Shown here: positions 43,462-57,388 of the stretch, piece by piece
Position numbering within the stretch: the first letter of the stretch is position 1
How the letters are laid out: each line of letters starts with the position of its first letter
Source: Bdellovibrionota bacterium
Lineage (GTDB): Bacteria; Bdellovibrionota_C; UBA2361; JBIKWN01
Reading direction: 5' to 3'
DNA: 64,000 bases
NCBI GenBank assembly: GCA_044356295.1
Contig: JBIKWN010000003.1
Span: 32,001-96,000, forward strand
Translations under genes and position numbers: made by a program
The notes under the pieces: generated by a model
Told to the model about the DNA's origin: nothing
Databases searched by the model: none
What the model saw: the letters and a program-made list of their open reading frames with translations, nothing else

Positions 43462-43617
43462 CTGTCTCTTTAGTCAGAGAACAAAACCCCATCTCCGTGA
43501 GCCTAGGCGTGAGCGTGACCAAAAAAAAGCAGATGGCTTCTAAATAAATTAAAGCAATAAAATCAAATAGTTAGAACCACTTATCCTTCATTATTCTCTC
43601 GGAGCTTGAAAAAACAC

Positions 43618-43645
43618 TAAAGTTTTCCAATCCAAAAGCCGTATT
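43618..43645 (+). promoter_or_regulatory. Candidate sigma-28 promoter of the flagellin gene
   Basis: TAAAGTTT...GCCGTATT (TAAA-N16-GCCG), ending 9 nt before ATG. Confidence 0.55.
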
Positions 43646-43654
43646 ATGTAACTG

Positions 43655-44461
43655 ATGGGTAATAACGGGTCGGTAGACGGCATTAAGCGAAATTTATTTC
43701 GCCAAACTGAAGAGCTTACACGCTCAAACAGTAAACTTGCTTCTGGAAAAAGAATCGAGCGCGCGGCAGATGATGCTGCTGGCTTAGCAGTTGCTGAAAA
43801 ACTTCTTGCAGATAGTGTTCAATTCTCTCAAGCATCACGAAATATTTCAGATGGTGTTTCCTTAACTCAGATACAAGACGGAGTTTACAGTTCACTGAGC
43901 GATATCAACTCTCGCCTCACTGAACTTGCCACTCAATCTTCAAATGGAACATTAAGTGATACTCAGCGCTCTACCCTCAATCAAGAATTCCAAGCTCTGA
44001 GCCAAGAAGCAACCCGTATCGTTAGCTCTACAACATTTAACGGACAAAATGTTTTTTCAGGCACAACCAACATTCAAGTGGGAATTGATAACTCTGAAAA
44101 TTCAACGATTGCACTTGTCGATCCAAAACTTGGGGAAACAGTCGCTCAACTGACTCCGCTCAGTATTGATTCTCAAGCAAACGCACAAGCATCTCTTGGA
44201 TTTTTAAATAGTTTTAGTGAACAGCTCTCACGAAGTCGTGGTGATTTAGGGTCACAGCAATCTCGCCTCGATTCAGCTAATAATATTGCTCAGACTCAGC
44301 GAGATAGCGCTATAACGGCCGAATCTAGAATCCGAGACTTAGACTATGCCGAAGAAATTACTAAACGTACTGCTCTGGTTATAAGTCAACAAAGCTCCAC
44401 CGCTCTCCTTGCCCAAGCAAGCAAGTTGAATGCTGGAATTGTCCAAAAATTAATTAGTTAA
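43655..44461 (+). CDS. fliC: Flagellin (short D0/D1-only, divergent termini)
   Basis: KLASGKRIERAADDAAGLA, RNISDG, RLTELATQSSNGT, TTFNG, QVG, AESRIRDLDYA. Confidence 0.92.
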   Translation: MGNNGSVDGIKRNLFRQTEELTRSNSKLASGKRIERAADDAAGLAVAEKLLADSVQFSQASRNISDGVSLTQIQDGVYSSLSDINSRLTELATQSSNGTLSDTQRSTLNQEFQALSQEATRIVSSTTFNGQNVFSGTTNIQVGIDNSENSTIALVDPKLGETVAQLTPLSIDSQANAQASLGFLNSFSEQLSRSRGDLGSQQSRLDSANNIAQTQRDSAITAESRIRDLDYAEEITKRTALVISQQSSTALLAQASKLNAGIVQKLIS

Positions 44462-44485: not shown

Positions 44486-44512
44486 TAAACATTCCACCTG
44501 AGTTGGCGATAA
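44486..44512 (+). promoter_or_regulatory. Sigma-28 promoter for ORF 44648
   Basis: TAAA-N15-GGCGATAA, one mismatch to TAAA-N15-GCCGATAA. Confidence 0.75.
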
Positions 44513-44521
44513 CTCATAGAA

Positions 44522-44538
44522 GACACAAGGACGTTGTC
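44522..44538 (+). promoter_or_regulatory. Putative CsrA-binding GGA hairpin in the 44648 leader
   Basis: GACACAAGGACGTTGTC: GACA/TGTC stem; ACACAAGGACGT matches 10 of 12 positions of RUACARGGAUGU. Confidence 0.5.
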
Positions 44539-44647
44539 ACAATTCGGTGCACGATACGAGTGTCGATTTATACTAGGAAGTTTTCGAGAGTCCTTTCTGC
44601 GAATAGAGTCTTCTCTCTTAAATTTCTGATGACAGTGAGGTTGTACA

Positions 44648-44998
44648 ATGAGCGATGCAGTAAATGGTGGCGGTAAACCCGTCCCCATTGCGCGACTATT
44701 CAGTGGCGCAAAAATTCAAGAAAAAAAAGAATCGGCAGATACGCCGCAAAAAGCAGTGGATTCTGTTGTTTCAGGTGTTGATAAAGCTCGGCAAAGTGTC
44801 GAGCGAATCACTGAAGCAGCAACGACGCGGATTGAAGTTATTCGACAGAATGAATCTTCATCTCGAACAAAAGTTGCGGATGTTGATGAGGCGTTACGTT
44901 TATCGAAAAATTTACGTCTTAATATTCAAGAAAATGAGCAAAGAGCTAAAGAAGCTCATGATCTTGATCTTTCAAAAATTAAAGAACTACTTAAGTAA
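44648..44998 (+). CDS. Small protein resembling only the flagellin C-terminal helices
   Basis: QNESSSRTKVADVDEA...IKELLK aligns with flagellin ENLTAAESRIRDVDMA...VLQLLR; SD GAGG. Confidence 0.7.
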   Translation: MSDAVNGGGKPVPIARLFSGAKIQEKKESADTPQKAVDSVVSGVDKARQSVERITEAATTRIEVIRQNESSSRTKVADVDEALRLSKNLRLNIQENEQRAKEAHDLDLSKIKELLK

Positions 44999-45020
44999 GT
45001 AATCTTACTTTAAGTAATTC

Positions 45021-45063
45021 AAAGTGTGTGGAAAAAGAATTATCTTGTTCCACACACTTTTTT
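45021..45063 (+). terminator. Rho-independent terminator after the flagellin locus
   Basis: AAAGTGTGTGGAA...TTCCACACACTTT plus T-tract. Confidence 0.85.
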
Positions 45064-45189
45064 GTTTGAGTAATTTTATTTTCTGCTACCACAAAATTGG
45101 GTAGAAGGTTTTTTAAGGGAGTCGTTTCTACTACTTAATACTTCCTAAAAAAGGGAAACTTTCCCCTTCCAGATTGCGAACAGTTCATT

Positions 45190-45627
45190 ATGTCTTGCAA
45201 TCTATATCAAAAGAAAAAAACGGCAGGATTCTCGATTCTTGAGGTTCTGATTTTGCTTTTTTTAACTGGGATTATCTTTTCGGTATCCTTCCCAGCCCTT
45301 GGTGCTGCTGTAAGAAAAACTGAAGCTCAAAAACAAGCTGATGCAATATCGGCTTGGCTATCAACACTTCATATGAAGTCCCTTAATATGCAAAAAGATC
45401 TCTCTGTGAGATTAAATAACAACGAACTCATCGCCAAAGATAAAAATGATAAAACTATAGCAAGAAAAAAAATATCAGAAAAAACAACAGTACGGTTATC
45501 TTCATCTCAAATAAGATTTTTTGCCTCAGGTGTTCAATCACCAACAACAATTTATCTTTCTCATCTCACGATAAGCTGCACCATTGTTCTAGCACTTCGT
45601 GGGAGAATCACTACTCAGTGCAAATAA
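45190..45627 (+). CDS. Type IV pilin-like protein (FimT/GspH-like)
   Basis: Prepilin site KKKTAG/FSILE plus hydrophobic helix; IRFFASG...RGRI C-terminus. Confidence 0.8.
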   Translation: MSCNLYQKKKTAGFSILEVLILLFLTGIIFSVSFPALGAAVRKTEAQKQADAISAWLSTLHMKSLNMQKDLSVRLNNNELIAKDKNDKTIARKKISEKTTVRLSSSQIRFFASGVQSPTTIYLSHLTISCTIVLALRGRITTQCK

Positions 45628-45844
45628 TATGTTTGGATTAGATTTTATTTTTTTACTGATAGGCTTTTCAAAATTCTCTACTGTTTTTATGAGTTTTGAA
45701 AACACACTCACAGTTTCGAATAAAATACTTAGTAATGTTTCAAATTACTCTGTACCAAAAGACTGTGAATCAAAGGAGTTGTTAAGGGAACATGTTTTAA
45801 TCTGTCAAGATTCAACAATATGGATTGTTGGGAAAAGCAGATGA
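45599..45844 (+). CDS. Small minor-pilin-like protein (PilV position)
   Basis: G/ESLLS plus hydrophobic stretch and a C-terminal Cys pair; coupled to its neighbours. Confidence 0.45.
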   Translation: MGESLLSANNMFGLDFIFLLIGFSKFSTVFMSFENTLTVSNKILSNVSNYSVPKDCESKELLREHVLICQDSTIWIVGKSR

Positions 45845-46707
45845 AAATTGATTTTCGAAAGAGAAGAAGCTCTGGAGCCTCGCTGATAGGTTTTATTATT
45901 TTTCTATCAATTTCATCAATGTTGATGTCGATACTGCTTTCAAAATTCCATGAACAAATTTCTAGTTTTCAAAAAAGCATCTATAGATTTGATGAGTTAA
46001 GGGGATTTCTTCAAACATATACTCTTTTAACTGTGGATTTTAGAAATTTAAATTTCTCGCGTCTGTCAATCACTCCGCAACTAGGTTCAGGTCTTATTAC
46101 GTATGCAGACGGTTCCCCACTTGCCTTATCAACCCCTTTAGCCGTTGGGTCAAAATGGTGGATATTTTACAGGACATCAAAAATACCAGTTTTAAACGTG
46201 ACTGGATCTAAATTTGAAAACAATCAAAACAGAATTGAAATCTGTAATCCATTCAGCAATAAGATTAACGCAGCACACAAAGATGCATTTGCCCTCTCTG
46301 ATAGCGGTATACAAGAGGTAGGAATTAGGATTATCAATTCATATGTAAATAACGAAATGACACCTTGTGTCTCATTAGAGATTGAAAAATTAAAACAACT
46401 CTTTGCGTCTTCAAACGACAATTGGCAACTTGCATTTACTCAAGCCGTACAAATTATTGATGAAAAGTTTTTATACATAACTGATGAAAAGAAACAGTTG
46501 AGAAGAATTCAGATTAGACAAAATGAGATAATTGAAAATCAGCCATGTATTAAAGCAGTACCAATTATGGAGTTAGCCTTGGGTCAAGATAATTCAAGAT
46601 ACACTTTAACTTGTGCATATTGCCCGTTACTATTGGTGAGAAGAAGACTTCAACCATTATCAGATCCTATGTTAGTGGCTTCTCTACTTTCCATGAAGGA
46701 CACATAA
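45841..46707 (+). CDS. Minor-pilin-like protein (PilW position)
   Basis: Basic leader KRRSSG/ASLIG plus hydrophobic helix; ATGA overlap with the previous ORF. Confidence 0.6.
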   Translation: MKIDFRKRRSSGASLIGFIIFLSISSMLMSILLSKFHEQISSFQKSIYRFDELRGFLQTYTLLTVDFRNLNFSRLSITPQLGSGLITYADGSPLALSTPLAVGSKWWIFYRTSKIPVLNVTGSKFENNQNRIEICNPFSNKINAAHKDAFALSDSGIQEVGIRIINSYVNNEMTPCVSLEIEKLKQLFASSNDNWQLAFTQAVQIIDEKFLYITDEKKQLRRIQIRQNEIIENQPCIKAVPIMELALGQDNSRYTLTCAYCPLLLVRRRLQPLSDPMLVASLLSMKDT

Positions 46708-47396
46708 AAGTGCTGTCATCTATTATAACAATTTGGCTGTTATATTTTTCATCAATTACTGAAAGATTTTTTTTAAATACACAGGCTTTTATTCAAATTG
46801 CATCATCGCTGCGAATAAGTGAACAAAGCTATAGTAATTCATTTTCGAATATTTTTTTAGCGCCTCAAAATTACTCTGAACAAAGCTTTCTGATTCGACC
46901 ACAAGACCCGACGTTAGGTTTACTAGACTGGTCAGATATTTTTAGTACGTATCAAATATGTAATTACGATACTCTATTAGAAAACAGAGTGTCCCAAGGG
47001 ATAGTCTCTCCAAAGACATGTAAATCTCTGGGGATAATTAAGGGGTCAAAAAGTTACGTAGGTAATGTAGAAGGAATTTTGCGAGTCGGGGAAATTGGAC
47101 AATTGCCGCTTCAAGCATATTCTTATCTTATTTTTTCAGGTCGAATTACAGCTGTGAACATCGAGTTTAATAGCCCAACATTACTACTTTCACTTGGAAG
47201 AATTTCAGCTGAAAAAATCACTTGCAAGAATAATGTACCAATAAAAATTTTCTCTTTTGAGGATATTAACTATACAGAACTTCATGGTTGTAGTCGTATA
47301 GAGATAGTACCAAGGCTACAAGAACAACAAAGCGTCCTTAAGAAGCATTTCTCTTCACGGCGATACCTACTTTACGGTATACTCGCTAAGCCTTGA
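46611..47396 (+). CDS. Minor-pilin-like protein (PilX position); start uncertain
   Basis: EG/HIKVLSSIITIWLLYF helix and a beta-rich C-terminus; last gene of the pilin-like cluster. Confidence 0.45.
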   Translation: MCILPVTIGEKKTSTIIRSYVSGFSTFHEGHIKVLSSIITIWLLYFSSITERFFLNTQAFIQIASSLRISEQSYSNSFSNIFLAPQNYSEQSFLIRPQDPTLGLLDWSDIFSTYQICNYDTLLENRVSQGIVSPKTCKSLGIIKGSKSYVGNVEGILRVGEIGQLPLQAYSYLIFSGRITAVNIEFNSPTLLLSLGRISAEKITCKNNVPIKIFSFEDINYTELHGCSRIEIVPRLQEQQSVLKKHFSSRRYLLYGILAKP

Positions 47397-48877: not shown

Positions 48878-51800
48878 ATGAACATTACAGACCTTCTTGG
48901 CGTTGAGCTTTCTTCCCGTATTCCCACAATATCTCAAAAAAAATATTCACAACGAGTATTAAAAAATCAGGTCGCAACTCGAGAGGAAATCTCTCGACTC
49001 GGGATGACTCTTGCTGCTGATCATAAAATTAAAACTGCTCTTACTAATGATCGAAGACTCTATCTTCGCCTCAGAAGTAACTGCGCTGATATTGAAAAAA
49101 GTTATTTGATACTTGCAGATACGGCACGTAAGAAGGAGGCAATTACTCCTGGCACTGAATGGTTACTTGATAACTATCATGTCATTGAAAAACAAATTAA
49201 CGAGATCAAAAATCATTTTCCTCGCGGTTATGACAAAACGCTTCCTCGACTTTTGGAAGGTGAATATCGTCAGTATCCTCGAGTCTACCATCTTGCAATG
49301 GAGTTCATTGCAAATACAGATTGTGTACTCGATACAGAGTTACTCAATGCCTATGTCGAAGGCTATCAAACACAAGCAGTACTACACATTGGTGAGGTAT
49401 GGGCAGTACCAATTATGATTCGATTTGCTCTATTAGAGCAACTTCGAAATCTCTCGCTTTCAATGATTCGTGCGCGTGAAGAATTTAAGGCAGCGGAAAA
49501 TTTGATTGAAGAAATTCTAGGTGATGAATCAAAGCCTGGAACACAAATTCTGTTGAATCTTGCTGAAAAAGTAATGCTCCGTCCAGATTTTCTTACAATG
49601 GGTGCAGGGCATTTAATAAGACGATTACGGGATAGAGGCCGAATCGCATCGCTTACTCTTCAATGGCTTGAAGAACGCTTGCGAGAAGAAGGTCAGGATC
49701 CAGAAGAAATTTTAAAAAATGAACAACGGCTACAAGCTGCTGATCAAATTACGATCGGAAATATTTTTACATCGCTTCGTTCGATTGCGTATGTTGATTG
49801 GGAAGGTTGGTTTGAGCACAACTGTAAGATTGAGCATATTTTAAGACTCGATCCTGCTGGGATATATCCACGTTGTGATTTTAAAACTCGAGATGCATAT
49901 CGTCATAGGATAGAACGGCTCGCTCGTTACGCAAAAAAAGACGAGACAGATGTTGCGGTTGCAGCAATAGGATTAGCGCGCGATTACCTTCATGCTCATA
50001 AAGATGCAGATGAAAAAGAAATAATACAAGATTATCGTGCCTCTGTGGGAGGATATCTTTCACAACGAGGGCTGCCTTTACTAGAACAGTCCTTACAGTA
50101 TCGACCTGGTATTGCTCAGTCATTACCACGGTTCATCAAAAGTCATCCAATTGCCTTCTACTTTTCGTTAATGGCATTTTTCACTGCGATTCCATATCTC
50201 TATGCGCTTTGTTATGCACAAACGTTTGCTTTATTTAATTGGGAAGTAATTCTTGTAGCTCTCCTTTGTTTTATTCCAGCTTCGGATCTTGGGAATAATA
50301 TTACTCAGTGGCTTGTTACAAAATTTACCTCACCAAAGCTTCTTCCTAAGTTAAACTTTGAAAATGGGATACCTGAGGAATGTAAAACCACAGTAGTCGT
50401 TCATTCTCTTTTTTCTGATAGAACTACTGCAAAAAATACAATTGAATCTCTTCATGTTCGATATCTTGGTAATGATGATCCTAATCTCATTTACTGCGTT
50501 CTTGCTGATTTGTCTGATGCTGATACTGAAATTGCAGAGAAGGATCAAGTTATTCTTGAATATGCTCAGGCTAAAATTGCAGACCTCAGAGCACAGCATG
50601 GTCATGATCGATTTATGGTTCTCTTCCGTAGGCGACACTGGAATCCAAGCGAAGGCAAGTGGATGGCGTGGGAACGCAAGCGCGGAAAGGTTGAAGAATT
50701 CAACCTTTTATTACTCGGTGCAGTTAATACAAGTTTTATAATATCAGAGGAAGAGAGACGACTTTTACTAGGTACGAAATACGTCATTACTCTTGATAAC
50801 GACACACAACTGCCTCGTGGTACCGCCCAAAAATTAGTAGCGGCTGCATCTCATCCAATGAATGCTCCTGTCTTTAATCCACGAACAAATCGAGTTATTG
50901 ACGGCTATACTATTATTCAACCACGTGTTGGAGTATCTCTAACAAGCGCAAATACTTCTTCATTCGCAAAAATATTTTCTGGAAATGCAGGACTTGATCC
51001 GTATACGCAAACTGTTTCTGATGTTTATCAAGATCTTTTTAGTGAAGGTTCATATATTGGAAAAGGAATTTACCGAGTTGATGCATTTGAAAAAGCGATG
51101 CATAACCGAGTGCCAACAAATGCATTACTGAGCCACGATCTTTTTGAAGGAATCTTTGCCCGTGTTGCTCTTGCATCTGATATTGAGCTGTATGATGAGT
51201 TCCCTTCGAAATATCATGTTCATGCAAAACGACAACATCGTTGGATTCGTGGTGATTGGCAATTACTTCCATGGGTAGGAGTTAGATCTCCAGCACGAGA
51301 AGGAAAGGCGCCGTCTCGCGTTACACCACTAGGTTGGTGGAAACTTTTTGATAATTTACGAAGAAGTCTTGTTGCTCCTTCACTATTTGCATTGATCGCG
51401 TTTGGAAGTGTTGTCTTGCCTGGAAATCCACTTTTTTGGATTGCATTTGCTGCATTGGTAATCGCATTCCCTGTATATACAAATCTTGCGCAGGCACTGA
51501 TTATTCCACCTCAAGGTCTTTCTTACGAAAGTCATTTCGGGGGCATTTGGCGTGATTTTGCTAAAATGTTCAAACAGACTCTTTTAACTTTAATTTTCAT
51601 GCCTCATCAGGCATTCAACTCAGCTCATGCAATTACTATAACGTTATTGCGATTGTATGTTTCAAAAAAACATCTTTTGCAATGGGAAACTGCATATCAC
51701 GCTGAACGTCGCATGACGTCCTCGTTGCTGAGCTTCCTTCATGAAATGATGTGGTCAATTTTCTTTACCACTGCATCATTTACTTGGGTTGTGGTTGTTG

Positions 51801-54800
51801 CGCCAGAGCGCTTACCACTTGTTATTCCGTTATATATTTTGTGGTTTAGTGCTCCATTTGCAGCAAAAGAAATAAGCAGACCAAGAACAGACTCTATTGC
51901 AAAGTTATCTGAGAGTGAAAAAGAAACAATAACTTCATATGCGCATGCAACATGGACGTACTTTCATCGTTACTTAACTGCAGAAAATAATTATCTCATT
52001 CCAGATAACTTTCAAGAAGTACCTTCTCCTGTTGTTGCACAAAGAACTTCACCAACAAATATTTCACTTTCAATGCTCACCACTATTTCAGCATACGATT
52101 TAGGATTTATAAGTTCCTACCGTGCTGCAAATCTGGTGAATAATATTTTTAAAGGGCTTGCGAAACTCGAACGCTATAACGGACATTTTCTTAACTGGTA
52201 TAAAACTGATACCGCTGAGTCACTCTATCCACGTTATGTTTCAATGGTTGATAGTGGAAACATGGCTGGTCACTTGATTGCTGTGAAGAATGCATTAATT
52301 GAACTTAAAAAAACTCCTGTATTCTCTTTGCAACATGTACGACACATTATCGTAAGTGCTAAAAAAATTGAATCTAAGCTTGGAGAAAACTCTAAGTCTG
52401 CCATAAGAAATCTCTCTTCTCTTCTTTCAGCACCAGATGGACTACATTCAGACGGAATAAGCCAAGTTCAAAATGCACTAGAAATTCTTCATCAAACGCT
52501 ACCTTCTGGAAATGAAGAAGCTTTAAGCATGCTCCGTGATGAATTAAGCGATTTTCTTGAAACATTAAAAATTTCTCAGCATGACGTCTATATCGTTCTT
52601 GATGAAGGAATTAAAGCTTGCTCTGACATAATTGAGAGTATTGATTTTAGTTTCTTATATGATAGCTCTAAAGATCTTTTTGCCATCGGTTATAATGTTG
52701 ACGCGGCAAGAAGAGATACTAGTTACTACGATCTGCTTGCATCAGAAGCACGACTTGGAAGCCTTTGTGCAATTGCAATGGGACAGCTTCCTGAGCGACA
52801 TTGGTTTTCATTAGGAAGAGGGCTTACACAAGTATCAGGAGGCAAAGCGCTGCTTTCGTGGACTGGTACTATGTTTGAGTACTTGATGCCACTTCTTGTC
52901 ATGAGAAGTTATCCGGATACTCTTTTACATGAAACATATGATGTTGTTGTTAAGGCACAAAAGAACTATGCAACAAAAAATTTAATTCCTTGGGGAATTT
53001 CAGAATCAAGCTTTAGTGGAGTTGATTTTGAAAAAACGTACCAATACCGAGCATTTGGTGTTCCCGGACTTGGTCTAAAACGAGGACTTGAAGATGACCT
53101 CGTTATTTCTCCATATTCAACCATGTTGGCACTTCCGATTGATCCAAAAGCTGCAATGAAAAATCTAGATCACATGAAGTCACTTGGATTCACCGGTGAT
53201 TGTGGTTTTTATGAAGCTGTGGATTATACAAAAGAGCGCCTCGCTGCTAACGAGAAGTTTCATATCGTACGTTCATATTTTGCTCACCATCAAGGAATGA
53301 GCATGGTGGCTATGAATAATACGCTCCATGATCATATTTGGCAGAGAAGATTTCACCGTGATCCATTGATTCAATCAGTCGATCTTCTACTTCAAGAAAA
53401 ATTCCCTGAACGGTTACCTGTTATTCTGCCCCATCAAACTGCGGCTACTGGAATTGAAGAGCGAAAAGCTGCTGATACAGAAGCTACGATGCAGCTATTC
53501 ACAACTCCACATACTGCAGTTCCAAGAACTCACCTTTTATCGAACGGTCGCTATACTGTTATGGTTGATAACTCGGGTGGTGGATTTAGTTTGTATGACA
53601 AAGAAATTTCACTTACACGATGGAGAGAAGATACGGTTCAAAATGATATGGGAACCCATATCTATATACGAGACCTTGATACTTCAAAAGTTTGGTCAGC
53701 AGGATATCAACCAACTTTTATTGAACCAAAATTATATGAAGCGATTTTCACACCTGATAAGGCTGAATTTAAGCGTCGTGATGAAAATATTTACTCTCAT
53801 TTAGAAATTACAGTATCACCAGAAGACGATTTAGAGATTCGACGAATTACTGTTGCCAACACTGGAACAGAAAGAAGAACGCTCGAGCTTACAAGCTTTG
53901 CAGAAGTTGCCCTTGCTCCAACAAGAGCAGATCAAGCACATCCAGCATTTGCAAAAATGTTTATTCAATCCGAGTACCTTGAAGAATATGATGCGCTACT
54001 TTTTTCAAGAAGACCTCGTTCTAAGAAAGAAGAAAAGACTTACTTACTACATCAAGTAGTAATGCATACCGTTTGGGATAGAACTCGTTATGAATCTTCA
54101 CGTGAAGTGTTTATTGGAAGAGGGAATAATTACAGAAACCCACATGCAATGCAGCCAAATGTTCAACTTTCTGGAACGACAGGATATGTCCTGGATCCTT
54201 GTATGTCACTTCGAGTTAAAGTCGAGCTAGCACCTGGTGAGTCGCAAACGATTACCTATCTAACAGGTTTCTCAAGGGATCGTGATGCAATTTTACAACT
54301 TGCAAATCGGTACCGAGACTTCAACCAGATCAATCGAGCTTTTGAAGTTGCATGGAGCCAAGCAAGTATTGAGCTTAGAAATGAACAAGCATATGGACAG
54401 CATGGTCCTGTATTCCAACGTTTAGCGAATGGATTGCTACTCAATATTGAGAAACTCAGAGCTAAGCCAGATGTGATTTCTCGGAATCGCCTCGGTCAAT
54501 CAGGCCTATGGAGATTTGGAATCTCGGGTGATCTTCCAATTTGTTTAGTGAAAATTACTGAACAGAACCAAACAAAAATCGTTGAAGAATTACTTCAGGC
54601 CCATCATTATCTTCGAAATAGAGGATTCCAATTTGATCTAGTTATTTTAAATGAACACTCAGGTGGATACTTACAAAGCGCGCAAGATGAAATTGAATTT
54701 TTAATTCGTTCAAGTTTTTCAGCACCTCTTATCGATCGAAAAGGTGGGATATTTACAAGAAATATTACTCAACTTTCTGAAGAAGAAAGGGACCTCTTGC

Positions 54801-57388
54801 AATCAGTTGCCCGAGTCGTTTTAAGTGGCCTTCGTGGATCACTAGCTGCTCAGATGCGGTTTGAAGAGCCTACTCAAGAATATATCCCATTTGAAAGTAA
54901 ACGCACTCCTAACTATGTCTTATCTTCTACTAAGAAAGTTCATCATGAAGGAGAATTCTTTAATGGAGTTGGAAGTTTTGATGAAGATGGAAAGTCTTAC
55001 AGTTTCTCAATTAATGATAAGACACTTCCTCCTGCTCCATGGTCGAATGTAGTCGCTAATCCAAGATTTGGAACTGTGATTACTGAAGTTGGTGGAGGTT
55101 ATACATGGTCAGAGAATAGTCGTGAAAATCGTCTCACTCCATGGAGTAACGATCCAGTTATCGATCCGCTCGGTGAAGTCATATATTTCCGTGATGTAAA
55201 AAGTGGTGCTTTCTGGTGCCCTACTCCACGTCCAATTTCACTTGAATCTGATGTTTCAGTTCATCATCGATTTGGAGAAACTGAATTTTTAACGACGATA
55301 GAAGGAATAACATCAACACTTTCTATTTCCGTCAGCCCTGATGACAATATTAAATTTTGGAATCTTGATCTTGAAAACGTAACTCCTGCACCCAGAACAA
55401 TCGAAGTATATCTTTATGCAAATTGGGTCATGGGCGTTCAGCGTCAAGATTCATACATGCAACTGGTAAGTTCCTTTGATAAAGACAATGAAACACTCTA
55501 TGTACAGAATCACTACAATGCTGATTTTGGTAGAAAAGTTTTATTTCTTGGGTCATCTGCTCCAATTGATACATATACCACTCAGCGTGCAGAGTTTATT
55601 GGAAGAAACCGAGATCTATCATCTCCAATAGCGCTTGCTTCAGTGAGTAATACTCAAAAAGGTGGAGCAAAATCTATTGTTAAACTCTCTGGAAGAACCG
55701 GTGCATGTCATGATTCCTGCGGCGTTATTAAAGTAATCGTTCAGATTGAGCCAAATCAAACTGAGCGTGTAAGCCTCTTTTTAGGTGATGCTGATTCAGT
55801 TGAACTGATGAAGTTAAAGGCTGAAAAAGCAAAAGATGAAAGCTTTGCACGCGAAGAAGCGCTTCGAACTAAAGCTCTTTATAAAGATGTAACAACTTCC
55901 GTGCAGATTAAGACACCACTAAGAAGTTTTGACATTTTAGTTAATGGTTGGCTGCTTTACCAAACGATTGGTTGTCGGCTATGGGGAAGAACTGGATTTT
56001 ATCAGAGCGGTGGAGCATTTGGTTTTAGGGACCAACTTCAAGACTCAATGGCTCTGCTCTATTCAAGACCTGATCTTGTAAGAAGTCAGATCTTGCTCCA
56101 TGCAAGCAGACAATTTGCAGAAGGTGACGTGCAGCACTGGTGGCACCCACCGACAGGGAAAGGTGTTCGAACACGAATCTCAGATGATTACCTTTGGATG
56201 CCTCTGATAACACAAAAATATATAGAAGTTACCGGAGATACTTCAATCCTCGATGAACGTGCTGGATTTATTGATGGACCAATACTTGCCGAACACGAAA
56301 TGGAAGCCTATATCGTTCCACACGTAAGCCAACATACAGCAACGATTTACGAAAAATGTATCTTAATGATCGATAGATCACTAACGCTTATCGGTGAACG
56401 AGGTATGCCACTTATGGGATGTGGTGACTGGAATGACGGAATGAATGAAATTGGTCATCATGGAAAAGGTGAATCAGTGTGGATGGGATGGTTCCTTGCA
56501 ACTGTGATTAAACACTTTATTCCGTCTGTCGAAAAACGAGGTGATTCAAAACGAGTAGCACGCTATGAAGCTGCTATTTCATCACTCAAGAATGCGTTGG
56601 AAACAAATGCATGGGATGGTGATTGGTACCGAAGAGCATACTTTGACGATGGCTCGCCAGTAGGAAGCAAACTTTCTGAAGAATGTCAGATTGATTCATT
56701 ACCTCAAAGTTGGAGCATAATTTCAGGAATTGGTGATGAAGGACGATCGAAAGTTGCGATGGACAATGTCTATGATCGACTCGTTTCAGATGAGTTTAAA
56801 ATTATTAAACTCTTCACTCCTCCTTTTAACACCGGCCCGCAAGAGCCTGGCTATATTAAAGGATACCTTCCTGGTATCAGAGAAAACGGTGGTCAGTATA
56901 CCCACGCATCTGCTTGGGTGATTATAGCAACTGCCCTTATGGGTAGAGGTTCGAAGGCAGTCGAGTTATTTGAATTAATCAATCCACTTAACCATACGAA
57001 AGATGTTGCTGGGACAGCCAAGTATCGTTGCGAACCGTACGTTCTGTGCGGTGATGTGTATTCTGCTGCTCCGTATGAGGGGCGTGCTGGTTGGAGTTGG
57101 TATACAGGTTCGGCTGGATGGATGTATCAGGCGGCGATTGAATATATTTTTGGACTAAAAGTAACTAAAGATTTTTTTACAGTTGAGCCGTGTATACCTA
57201 ATGATTGGAAGGAATTATCACTGACCTATCGACGTGGAAATTCAGTCTATCAAGTAAGTATCCTAAACCCACAGGGTGTTGAGCGTGGCGTAAAATCGGT
57301 AAGCATTGATGGTAGTGTCGTTTCAGATGGTAAGGTTATTTTTACCCAAGACGGAAAAACTCATCAAATTACCGTCACACTCGGATAA
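48878..57388 (+). CDS. ndvB: Cyclic beta-1,2-glucan synthase (Cgs/NdvB/ChvB; GT84 + cyclisation domain + GH94 phosphorylase)
   Basis: 2836 aa; EWLLDN, WERKRGK, TLDNDT, GSYIGKG, LLSHDLFEG, RQHRWIRGDWQ, RTSPTNI, YDLLASEAR, GTMFEYLMP, GFYQSGGAFGFRDQLQD, GDWND, ENGGQYTH. Confidence 0.95.
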   Translation: MNITDLLGVELSSRIPTISQKKYSQRVLKNQVATREEISRLGMTLAADHKIKTALTNDRRLYLRLRSNCADIEKSYLILADTARKKEAITPGTEWLLDNYHVIEKQINEIKNHFPRGYDKTLPRLLEGEYRQYPRVYHLAMEFIANTDCVLDTELLNAYVEGYQTQAVLHIGEVWAVPIMIRFALLEQLRNLSLSMIRAREEFKAAENLIEEILGDESKPGTQILLNLAEKVMLRPDFLTMGAGHLIRRLRDRGRIASLTLQWLEERLREEGQDPEEILKNEQRLQAADQITIGNIFTSLRSIAYVDWEGWFEHNCKIEHILRLDPAGIYPRCDFKTRDAYRHRIERLARYAKKDETDVAVAAIGLARDYLHAHKDADEKEIIQDYRASVGGYLSQRGLPLLEQSLQYRPGIAQSLPRFIKSHPIAFYFSLMAFFTAIPYLYALCYAQTFALFNWEVILVALLCFIPASDLGNNITQWLVTKFTSPKLLPKLNFENGIPEECKTTVVVHSLFSDRTTAKNTIESLHVRYLGNDDPNLIYCVLADLSDADTEIAEKDQVILEYAQAKIADLRAQHGHDRFMVLFRRRHWNPSEGKWMAWERKRGKVEEFNLLLLGAVNTSFIISEEERRLLLGTKYVITLDNDTQLPRGTAQKLVAAASHPMNAPVFNPRTNRVIDGYTIIQPRVGVSLTSANTSSFAKIFSGNAGLDPYTQTVSDVYQDLFSEGSYIGKGIYRVDAFEKAMHNRVPTNALLSHDLFEGIFARVALASDIELYDEFPSKYHVHAKRQHRWIRGDWQLLPWVGVRSPAREGKAPSRVTPLGWWKLFDNLRRSLVAPSLFALIAFGSVVLPGNPLFWIAFAALVIAFPVYTNLAQALIIPPQGLSYESHFGGIWRDFAKMFKQTLLTLIFMPHQAFNSAHAITITLLRLYVSKKHLLQWETAYHAERRMTSSLLSFLHEMMWSIFFTTASFTWVVVVAPERLPLVIPLYILWFSAPFAAKEISRPRTDSIAKLSESEKETITSYAHATWTYFHRYLTAENNYLIPDNFQEVPSPVVAQRTSPTNISLSMLTTISAYDLGFISSYRAANLVNNIFKGLAKLERYNGHFLNWYKTDTAESLYPRYVSMVDSGNMAGHLIAVKNALIELKKTPVFSLQHVRHIIVSAKKIESKLGENSKSAIRNLSSLLSAPDGLHSDGISQVQNALEILHQTLPSGNEEALSMLRDELSDFLETLKISQHDVYIVLDEGIKACSDIIESIDFSFLYDSSKDLFAIGYNVDAARRDTSYYDLLASEARLGSLCAIAMGQLPERHWFSLGRGLTQVSGGKALLSWTGTMFEYLMPLLVMRSYPDTLLHETYDVVVKAQKNYATKNLIPWGISESSFSGVDFEKTYQYRAFGVPGLGLKRGLEDDLVISPYSTMLALPIDPKAAMKNLDHMKSLGFTGDCGFYEAVDYTKERLAANEKFHIVRSYFAHHQGMSMVAMNNTLHDHIWQRRFHRDPLIQSVDLLLQEKFPERLPVILPHQTAATGIEERKAADTEATMQLFTTPHTAVPRTHLLSNGRYTVMVDNSGGGFSLYDKEISLTRWREDTVQNDMGTHIYIRDLDTSKVWSAGYQPTFIEPKLYEAIFTPDKAEFKRRDENIYSHLEITVSPEDDLEIRRITVANTGTERRTLELTSFAEVALAPTRADQAHPAFAKMFIQSEYLEEYDALLFSRRPRSKKEEKTYLLHQVVMHTVWDRTRYESSREVFIGRGNNYRNPHAMQPNVQLSGTTGYVLDPCMSLRVKVELAPGESQTITYLTGFSRDRDAILQLANRYRDFNQINRAFEVAWSQASIELRNEQAYGQHGPVFQRLANGLLLNIEKLRAKPDVISRNRLGQSGLWRFGISGDLPICLVKITEQNQTKIVEELLQAHHYLRNRGFQFDLVILNEHSGGYLQSAQDEIEFLIRSSFSAPLIDRKGGIFTRNITQLSEEERDLLQSVARVVLSGLRGSLAAQMRFEEPTQEYIPFESKRTPNYVLSSTKKVHHEGEFFNGVGSFDEDGKSYSFSINDKTLPPAPWSNVVANPRFGTVITEVGGGYTWSENSRENRLTPWSNDPVIDPLGEVIYFRDVKSGAFWCPTPRPISLESDVSVHHRFGETEFLTTIEGITSTLSISVSPDDNIKFWNLDLENVTPAPRTIEVYLYANWVMGVQRQDSYMQLVSSFDKDNETLYVQNHYNADFGRKVLFLGSSAPIDTYTTQRAEFIGRNRDLSSPIALASVSNTQKGGAKSIVKLSGRTGACHDSCGVIKVIVQIEPNQTERVSLFLGDADSVELMKLKAEKAKDESFAREEALRTKALYKDVTTSVQIKTPLRSFDILVNGWLLYQTIGCRLWGRTGFYQSGGAFGFRDQLQDSMALLYSRPDLVRSQILLHASRQFAEGDVQHWWHPPTGKGVRTRISDDYLWMPLITQKYIEVTGDTSILDERAGFIDGPILAEHEMEAYIVPHVSQHTATIYEKCILMIDRSLTLIGERGMPLMGCGDWNDGMNEIGHHGKGESVWMGWFLATVIKHFIPSVEKRGDSKRVARYEAAISSLKNALETNAWDGDWYRRAYFDDGSPVGSKLSEECQIDSLPQSWSIISGIGDEGRSKVAMDNVYDRLVSDEFKIIKLFTPPFNTGPQEPGYIKGYLPGIRENGGQYTHASAWVIIATALMGRGSKAVELFELINPLNHTKDVAGTAKYRCEPYVLCGDVYSAAPYEGRAGWSWYTGSAGWMYQAAIEYIFGLKVTKDFFTVEPCIPNDWKELSLTYRRGNSVYQVSILNPQGVERGVKSVSIDGSVVSDGKVIFTQDGKTHQITVTLG

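Follow-up and report, generated by a model that had tools for sequence, protein, structure and literature searches.

Here we describe a mini-flagellin gene, a coding sequence for 116 amino acids on the forward (+) strand at positions 44648-44998 of a 64-kb window (the whole stretch of DNA that was analysed) from contig JBIKWN010000003.1 of an uncultured Bdellovibrionota bacterium. By profile comparison, its product is an N-terminally truncated, diverged paralogue of flagellin, and only remotely homologous to it. It retains the final turn of the N-terminal D1 segment (ND1), a connector that has become shorter, and the D1 and D0 helices of the C-terminus (CD1 and CD0); the N-terminal D0 segment (ND0) and almost the whole of ND1 are missing from it. 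The mini-gene is a real gene under purifying selection, and it belongs to an unannotated family of half-flagellins of 116-165 residues from uncultured Bdellovibrionota. We tentatively read the mini-protein as a soluble, non-polymerising mimic of the flagellin tail that would engage FliS and possibly FliW, a reading to which we give a probability of about 0.4.

The tail of flagellin is the part of the protein that is read by FliS and, in Bacillus, by FliW. Within the filament subunit, ND0 and ND1 are the partners that pack against the CD1 and CD0 helices, and a protein with no ND0 and almost no ND1 would therefore be unable, on its own, to fold the flagellin core or to polymerise.

Results

A conserved gene under purifying selection

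The host assembly comprises 2.96 Mb and is 93.6% complete. The 116-residue open reading frame (ORF) exists as the original prediction had described it, and its start lies 186 nucleotides 3′ of the end of a full-length flagellin gene on the same strand. When the window was compared with two other members of the genus, the ratio of nonsynonymous to synonymous substitution (dN/dS) of the mini-ORF was 0.10-0.23, at a proportion of synonymous differences (pS) of 0.64-0.74, which is saturated. Four close relatives of the mini-protein were found among 14 candidates, at 67-77% identity, and a search of the family profile against 1.84 billion representative proteins returned 10 matches at E<=1e-3, eight of which are proteins of 95-146 residues; the two long matches, of 823 and 549 residues, are RNHCP and KH-domain proteins whose repeats were summed, and they were judged spurious. 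The length of the protein is 114-121 residues in nine of the 12 aligned members of the family, and profile searches found ORFs of the mini type (116-165 residues) in many of the 91 genomes of the order. Wherever these relatives carry a name in their sources, it is "hypothetical protein". The original prediction had considered that the ORF might be a decaying duplicate, and this is contradicted both by the dN/dS values and by the conservation in relatives.

Remote homology to the flagellin C-terminus

The profile of the mini family was built from 12 sequences. Compared with the sequences of the PDB, it gave 25 matches at E<=10. Flagellin or flagella chains made up 21 of them, and positions ~35-115 of the profile always fell on the last ~80 residues of the matched chain. 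Among the 9048 ORFs of its own genome the profile found, after itself, 12 matches up to E 1.2, all but one of them flagellins (11/12), and in the alignment the stretch ..rievikqNesssrvkvedvdeAakLaknlklni.. of the mini family pairs with ..nlqVarqNfqnaEsvIRDvDvAaEsAeltrlnI.. of flagellin. In hhalign comparisons, the mini profile scored 33.2 (P 1.6e-4) against the eight short flagellins of the genome, while 60 column-shuffled controls scored 11.9 on average (standard deviation 2.1, maximum 19.5) and the reversed profile scored 14.8. Against flagellins of the type that neighbours the mini-gene, the comparison gave P 3.2e-7 and a probability of 93%, with a collinear alignment of residues 10-116 on positions 124-262 of 262. 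The relatives of 132-163 residues aligned at P 2.7e-16, and a divergent family of about 265 residues, referred to here as the MDVKDV family, at P 2e-13 with a probability of 98%; this family in turn aligned over its full length with the neighbour-type flagellins (P 1.7e-13). The profile search across the 91 genomes thus met three types of relative, namely the ORFs of 116-165 residues, the MDVKDV family of ~250-310 residues, and the true flagellins. In the ESM Atlas, the top three clusters of the feature search were Flagellin_C proteins (0.94, 0.91 and 0.90); the structure rows listed dynamin-like proteins, methyl-accepting chemotaxis proteins and others, and a single long helix fits any coiled coil. 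The resemblance to the C-terminal D1 and D0 helices of flagellin without an N-terminal domain, which the original prediction had aligned by eye, is therefore borne out by the PDB profile search and by hhalign.

Searches with existing family models saw little of this. Pfam and NCBIfam gave chance-level matches only on the mini-protein, neither Flagellin_N (PF00669) nor FlaG (PF03646) matched it, and BLASTP between the mini-protein and the neighbouring flagellin returned nothing. FlgM (PF04316) did not match the mini-ORF; the genome has four FlgM matches above the Pfam cut-off on other contigs (C18:32240-32398, C4:405-536, C70:69659-69742 and C68:3587-3745).

The collinear alignment sets the N-terminal IARLFSGAKIQE of the mini-protein at the end of ND1 (..FNG..LLSG..IQVG). 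We rejected a different placement, in which the N-terminal L.SGAK(V/I) would equal the LSSGLRIN of flagellin and the rest would have been lost by an internal deletion: HMMER support for it was weak (1-9 bits), the hhalign alignment is collinear at the ND1 end, and the family of about 265 residues has RPLAGEKI there. As to its origin, the mini family could have arisen by truncation of a neighbour-type flagellin, with the leader retained, or by descent from the MDVKDV family; profile distance favours derivation from the MDVKDV family, and the shared leader described below favours the neighbour-type flagellin. A replacement of the MDVKDV family by the mini-protein was rejected, as both co-occur in this genome and in several others.

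Structure and conserved segments of the mini-protein

In the AlphaFold2 model of the mini-protein (mean predicted local distance difference test score, pLDDT, 70.1; predicted template modelling score, pTM, 0.31), residues 1-32 have no secondary structure (pLDDT ~50), in agreement with the low-structure N-terminus of about 35 residues that had been claimed for it. Helices span residues 33-104 and 108-115, so that the protein is essentially one long helix after residue 32. Conservation within the family is highest over the CD1 segment T59-A82 (TTRIEVIRQNE.SSR.KV.DVD.A), and the C-terminal end I111-K116 (..IKELLK) is invariant across the five close members. Asn68, within the CD1 segment, lies 48 residues from the C-terminus and is nearly invariant in the 12 family sequences; the aligned position is Ser in the neighbouring flagellin and Ala in the orthologue of that flagellin in the sister genome, and an orthologue from another family has kept the Asn. 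The original prediction had called both the Asn at this distance from the end and the Ser of the adjacent flagellin, and the alignment agrees with it on both.

Promoter and terminator

Upstream of the mini-gene, at 44486-44512 (+), we read from the sequence a sigma-28-type promoter-like site, TAAA-N15-GGCGATAA, which fits the TAAA-N15-GCCGATAA type of the late flagellar regulon of FliA. At no more than one mismatch, the 64-kb window has two copies of the sigma-28 consensus where 0.38 would be expected, a count that 4 of 100 shuffles reach, and the second copy sits inside an unrelated ORF. In relatives the aligned site reads TAAC-N15-GTCGACTA and ..CCGACTAA, and the flagellin genes of the same genome have promoters of the TAAC-N15-GTCGATTT type. 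FliA itself is present in the genome (247.7 bits), and the promoter-like site that the original prediction had given the mini-gene thus occurs together with its presumptive sigma factor.

The intrinsic terminator that had also been predicted lies at 45024-45063 (+), where the stem GTGTGTGGAA/TTCCACACAC is followed by TTTTTT; the fold computed for 44999-45075, which includes it, has a minimum free energy of -25.3 kcal/mol. At the same place the two other genus members carry non-homologous terminators, again a hairpin with a run of T. A consensus scan for promoters and terminators reported neither element, the sigma-28 site being outside the model of the scan and the terminator having a long loop. 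Rfam had no match in the leader, and its three weak matches (E 0.56-0.85, far under the gathering scores) fall at 44976-45167, at the end of the coding sequence or beyond it.

A flagellin-type leader

Between promoter and start codon lies a leader of about 135 nucleotides, which, judged by its conservation, is of the flagellin type and under strong constraint. Between the window and the sister genome the leader is 78% identical (110/141 columns), as against 45% at third codon positions (53/117) and 70% over the whole coding sequence. Conserved blocks run through it in all three members of the genus: the CGA of the -10 element, CACA(A/G)GGA, GTGTCGA, TAGG, TCCTTTCTGC, and GACA(G/A)TGAGGTTGTA before the ATG. 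The 5′-proximal hairpin GACACAAGGACGTTGTC, at 44522-44538 (+), resembles a CsrA site and holds a GGA (44529-44531) in its loop; its core, CACA(A/G)GGA, is found in 3/3 members of the genus and its stem in 2/3. A second GGA element, ACTAGGAAGT, follows at 44572-44581 (+), with its GGA at 44576-44578, and TAGG stands at this place in all three members, the third having TAGGG. Both the hairpin with its GGA loop and the second GGA had been noted before and are present. Further downstream, the block TCCTTTCTGC at 44591-44600 (+) is invariant in the three genus members, and RNAalifold predicts that it pairs with GACAGTGAGG at the ribosome-binding site; all of the pairs are invariant, hence covariation speaks neither for nor against them.

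The last part of the leader is a 15-nucleotide translation-initiation motif, GACAGTGAGGTTGTA, at 44631-44645 (+), which includes the Shine-Dalgarno sequence GAGG. At no more than one mismatch the motif is unique within the 2.96-Mb genome and is found in 51 of the 91 genomes of the order. When matches were assigned by hand through their coordinates, which covers part of all matches, 21 lay 5′ of a mini-type gene and 15 lay 5′ of a neighbour-type flagellin, with one genome having both. The flagellin beside the mini-gene in the window is without the motif. Among 27 fetched loci of neighbour-type orthologues outside the genus, it directly precedes the flagellin start in nine; six of those nine have CTTTCTGC(A/G), and most have a (G/C)CCGA(T/C) -10 element. 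Across families of the order the nucleotides of the motif are thus conserved, and the gene behind it is either a mini-flagellin gene or one of a single flagellin lineage.

The element A[ACT]A[AG]GGA, to which the core of the hairpin conforms, occurs in nine of 26 distinct related leaders against 1.3 expected (500 shuffles reached at most 5), and in 3/3 members of the genus but in only one of 14 leaders of the group of 132-163 residues. The leaders of the genome's own flagellins have GGA hairpins as well, for example CACAAGGATTGTG and GTCCAAGGACGGAC, and GCAAAAGGAATTGC at the ribosome site. It is plausible, by analogy, that CsrA reads the leader of the mini-gene; the CsrA of B. bacteriovorus represses a hag reporter (PMC13443453).

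Partners in the genome and in the order

The partners that the original prediction invoked are all encoded in the genome. Besides fliA, there is a flgK-flgL-csrA-fliW cluster on contig C98, in which csrA (118 residues) and fliW (155 residues) follow flgL, and fliS is present too. Both are nearly universal across the order, FliW being encoded by 82 of the 91 genomes and FliS by 83. Two genomes of family f4 of the order (G008 and G009, 94-97% complete) have FliW (E 1e-28) and gave no flagellin at E<=1e-30, with the neighbouring flagellin as query, and no FliS. In the genome of the window, FlaG has no Pfam homologue (the best hit, E 0.28, is inside a frame of 960 residues elsewhere), and FlbT and FlaF have no match at E<=0.01 in this 93.6% complete assembly.

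Genomic neighbourhood and further flagellin-like families

The full-length flagellin gene next to the mini-gene, at 43655-44461 (+), encodes 268 residues and belongs to a divergent "KL(A/S)SGKRI" lineage, with orthologues at 40-48% identity across the order. Its Pfam matches are Flagellin_N at 1.6e-31 and Flagellin_C at 5.9e-14, the latter (54.9 bits) being the weakest Flagellin_C match among the genome's flagellins. The sequence before it (43580-43655) has no visible Shine-Dalgarno sequence, and a TAAA-N16-GCCGTATT ends about 11 nucleotides before its ATG, which would mean a very short leader; in the sister genome, the corresponding ORF begins 14 codons earlier. The genome has about 19 flagellin genes in 3 Mb (for example C38:28835-30636, C74:38081-42080 and C8:936-2816), eight for proteins of ~286-295 residues and about eleven for proteins of ~607-628 residues; some stand in tandem, and two have identical leaders. 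On the other side of the mini-gene, the region 45190-47396 holds a pseudopilin-like gene (weak matches to N_methyl and GspH) and two ORFs of no known family. The pseudopilin-like gene is downstream of the mini-gene in 3/3 members of the genus, and a flagellin gene is linked to the mini-gene in 2/3. An ORF of 2836 residues lies 4 kb downstream of the mini-gene, at 48878-57388.

The searches also brought up other relatives of flagellin. The MDVKDV family comprises divergent flagellin-like proteins of ~250-310 residues that begin with MDVKDV (for example at L043, L046 and L050); they match Pfam below threshold only and adjoin ffh in 3/3 loci checked. The copy in this genome, C1:5850-6590 (-), adjoins ffh as well, and it has a degenerate C-terminus in which the conserved C-terminal motif is lost. 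A second divergent flagellin-like family (~243-284 residues, for example L125:528-1379 (-)) directly follows the neighbour-type flagellin at 10 of the 27 loci that lie outside the genus; its copy in this genome, at C46:16785-17621, is unlinked to the neighbour-type flagellin. Finally, a 127-residue ORF beside ribosomal-protein-like genes, C99:7023-7406 (+), weakly resembles the C-terminal third of the mini family (E 8.4e-4 with the mini profile, 1.6e-4 with the profile of the 132-163-residue relatives) and may be a chance match or a distant paralogue.

Discussion

A proposed tail mimic for FliS

In the reading that we favour, the mini-gene would form a late-flagellar unit of its own, read from a sigma-28-type promoter and closed by a separate terminator, and its leader would match in kind the leader of one full-length flagellin lineage, the two sharing the ACAAGGA element, the CTTTCTGC block and GACAGTGAGGTTGTA. 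With such a leader its synthesis is probably under the same post-transcriptional control as that of flagellin, for which CsrA is the candidate regulator. FliS would bind the invariant ..IKELLK end and the CD0-like helix of the mini-protein, and the conserved CD1 segment may be bound by FliW too. By occupying FliS or FliW, the mini-protein would then tune the export or the translation of flagellin in a cell with some 19 flagellin genes. FliS requires an intact C-terminal end of CD0 (PMC5466977) and binds the C-terminal 40 residues of flagellin (PMC7248283). The conserved end of the mini-protein corresponds to the part of flagellin that FliS needs, and for this reason we favour a tail mimic that would act on FliS and possibly on FliW.

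Several observations weigh against this reading. With regard to homology, the Pfam model Flagellin_C (PF00700) has no match at E<=1 in the mini-protein or in any of the 12 family members, and a six-frame scan of the genome with it at E<=10 matched the ~19 flagellin genes and FlgL and missed the mini-ORF; the best single PDB match has E 0.037 and none is individually significant (every one >0.03). The flagellin likeness of the original prediction is therefore reached by the family profile and hhalign, at CD1 and CD0, and not by the Pfam model. The CD0-like part is far more charged than that of true flagellins (..NIQENEQRAKEAHDLDLSKIKELLK as against ..NILQQAGAAVLAQANQQPQLALQLLRG), and recognition by FliS is consequently not assured. 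With regard to context, the mini-gene of the third genus member does not adjoin a flagellin gene, and relatives from a different family of the order adjoin a FabH-like gene; neighbours being so variable, the link to flagella stands on promoter, leader and homology. In the leader, the 3′ arm of the hairpin is lost in the third genus member, the fold energy is ordinary (z +1.04), the total of GGA in the 26 related leaders is barely raised (74, against 63 +/- 6), and the ribosome site has GAGG and no GGA. Of the hag-type CsrA leader that had been proposed, the 5′ ACAAGGA hairpin with its conserved core stands, and a GGA overlapping the Shine-Dalgarno sequence is missing, which leaves the two-site layout half present; likewise, conservation within the genus extends to the ACA[AG]GGA core in all three members and not to the whole hairpin. 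The part of the reading that concerns FliW is weaker than the original prediction had it. Asn occupies the position of Asn68 in 11 of the 18 other flagellins of the genome, and in Campylobacter jejuni FliW needs an N-terminal part of flagellin, which the mini-protein does not have, and does not bind FlaC, which carries the Asn (PMC5466977). Asn is therefore not diagnostic as a mark of FliW binding, and since it is common among flagellins and the C. jejuni FliW ignores FlaC, it does not follow that a regulatory role has moved from the flagellins to the mini-protein, as the original prediction had it.

Alternative explanations

The same facts have to be held against other explanations. It is unlikely, in our estimate, that the mini-protein is a dedicated ligand of FliW, held through Asn68 in a switch of the Hag-FliW-CsrA kind, so that its export or accumulation would set the amount of free FliW and hence the activity of CsrA towards the leader of the mini-gene and those of the flagellins. 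Such a role would suit the position of fliW next to a csrA whose product has a long C-terminal tail, the conservation of the CD1 segment around a nearly invariant N68, the loss of the Asn in the neighbouring flagellin (Ser) and in its sister-genome orthologue (Ala), and the ACAAGGA hairpin in the leader; moreover, the PDB profile matches include 5maw_D and 6gow_D, which are titled flagellin and which we take to be from B. subtilis complexes of FliS, flagellin and FliW. It is opposed by the Asn of 11 of the 18 other flagellins, by the fact that this residue is a general flagellin feature, by the missing GGA at the ribosome site, and by the behaviour of C. jejuni FliW, which binds the N-terminal part of flagellin and leaves the Asn-bearing FlaC unbound (PMC5466977). 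A further reading, quite unlikely in our view, sees in the mini-protein a cytoplasmic ligand held by both FliS and FliW and removed, by export or degradation, when the hook-basal body is complete; the freed FliW would then lift the repression by CsrA on the ~19 flagellin mRNAs, and GACAGTGAGGTTGTA would be the recognition site of a translational repressor that ties the ligand to one flagellin lineage. If this were true, sensing and structure would be split between separate gene products in a bacterium with many flagellins.

Rather unlikely, too, is a role in assembly, in which the half-flagellin would be exported and would dock through CD1/CD0 on the filament end or on the hook-filament junction, as a chain terminator, a length controller standing in for FlaG, or a minor component. 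A flaG gene often lies downstream of a flagellin gene, which is the position of the mini-gene here, and the genome has no FlaG homologue in Pfam (the best E being 0.28); the disordered N-terminus, as in flagellar export substrates, and the late-gene signals (FliA and the promoter) would also agree with an exported part. The mini-protein has no sequence likeness to FlaG, however, and its CD0 is charged, whereas the core of the filament needs a hydrophobic one. That the protein has left the flagellum altogether, as a coiled-coil protein of flagellin descent that works, for example, with the downstream pseudopilin-like genes, we consider very unlikely: the pseudopilin-like gene is the more constant neighbour (3/3 as against 2/3 for flagellin) and relatives in other families adjoin housekeeping genes, but a terminator of its own follows the mini-gene in each of the three genus members, its -10 elements are of the sigma-28 type, and its leader is shared with a true flagellin lineage. 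To a spurious ORF or a decaying remnant of a flagellin duplication we give almost no credence; a position directly after a flagellin gene and a length truncated relative to flagellins are what a remnant would show, but dN/dS is 0.10-0.23 at saturated dS, the length is held at 114-121 residues in 9/12 aligned members, leader, ribosome site and terminator are conserved, and relatives occur in many genomes.

Comparison with known systems

If the mini-protein does work as a mimic, it would offer a simple natural handle on how cells with many flagellins balance their export chaperones and FliW-CsrA switch, and on the minimal part of flagellin that is recognised. What had gone unannotated here is the half-flagellin family itself, the two further divergent flagellin-like families of the order, and the order-wide motif GACAGTGAGGTTGTA. 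Non-structural paralogues of flagellin are known but few, namely FljJ, FlaC and the flagellin-like HP1076, and each of them keeps the whole fold.

With the C-terminal D1 and D0 regions of flagellin (FliC/Hag), the mini-protein shares a collinear profile similarity up to its very C-terminus, including the motif ..N..(A/S)S...(V/I).D(V/L)D.A..L... and the terminal LL(K/R), and the mini-gene shares with flagellin genes a sigma-28-type promoter and a leader with a GGA hairpin. It differs from flagellin in its length, 116 residues as against at least ~260 for the smallest flagellins seen here, in the missing ND0 and almost all of ND1, in its charged CD0, and in falling below Pfam detection. FljJ of Caulobacter crescentus is a flagellin paralogue proposed to be regulatory, a co-repressor that acts with FlbT and is removed by secretion, rather than a main filament subunit (PMC7591256, citing Ardissone et al. 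2020). A proposed regulatory role is thus common to FljJ and the mini-protein; FljJ is of full length and assembled next to the hook, and its partners FlbT and FlaF were not found in this genome. FlaC of C. jejuni is likewise a non-filament homologue of flagellin, secreted and non-structural, and is bound by FliS but not by FliW (PMC5466977); it keeps its N- and C-terminal D0 and D1, lacking only D2 and D3. HP1076 of H. pylori is a small helical protein, no flagellin although flagellin-like in structure, that competes with flagellin for FliS (PMC7248283), which is what we propose of the mini-protein. In contrast to our proposal, HP1076 depends on RpoN and is associated with the membrane, and what it mimics is D1, without a CD0 tail. 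HP1076 is not among the 25 PDB profile matches of the mini family.

The Hag-FliW-CsrA switch of B. subtilis, finally, has all of its components in this genome, and the leader of the mini-gene has a 5′-proximal GGA hairpin, but a GGA overlapping the Shine-Dalgarno sequence is absent here, and the ligand would be a half-flagellin. Set beside these systems, the mini-protein is, as far as its homology and selection tell, a flagellin tail and nothing else, natural and selected, and as such new among the non-structural paralogues of flagellin.

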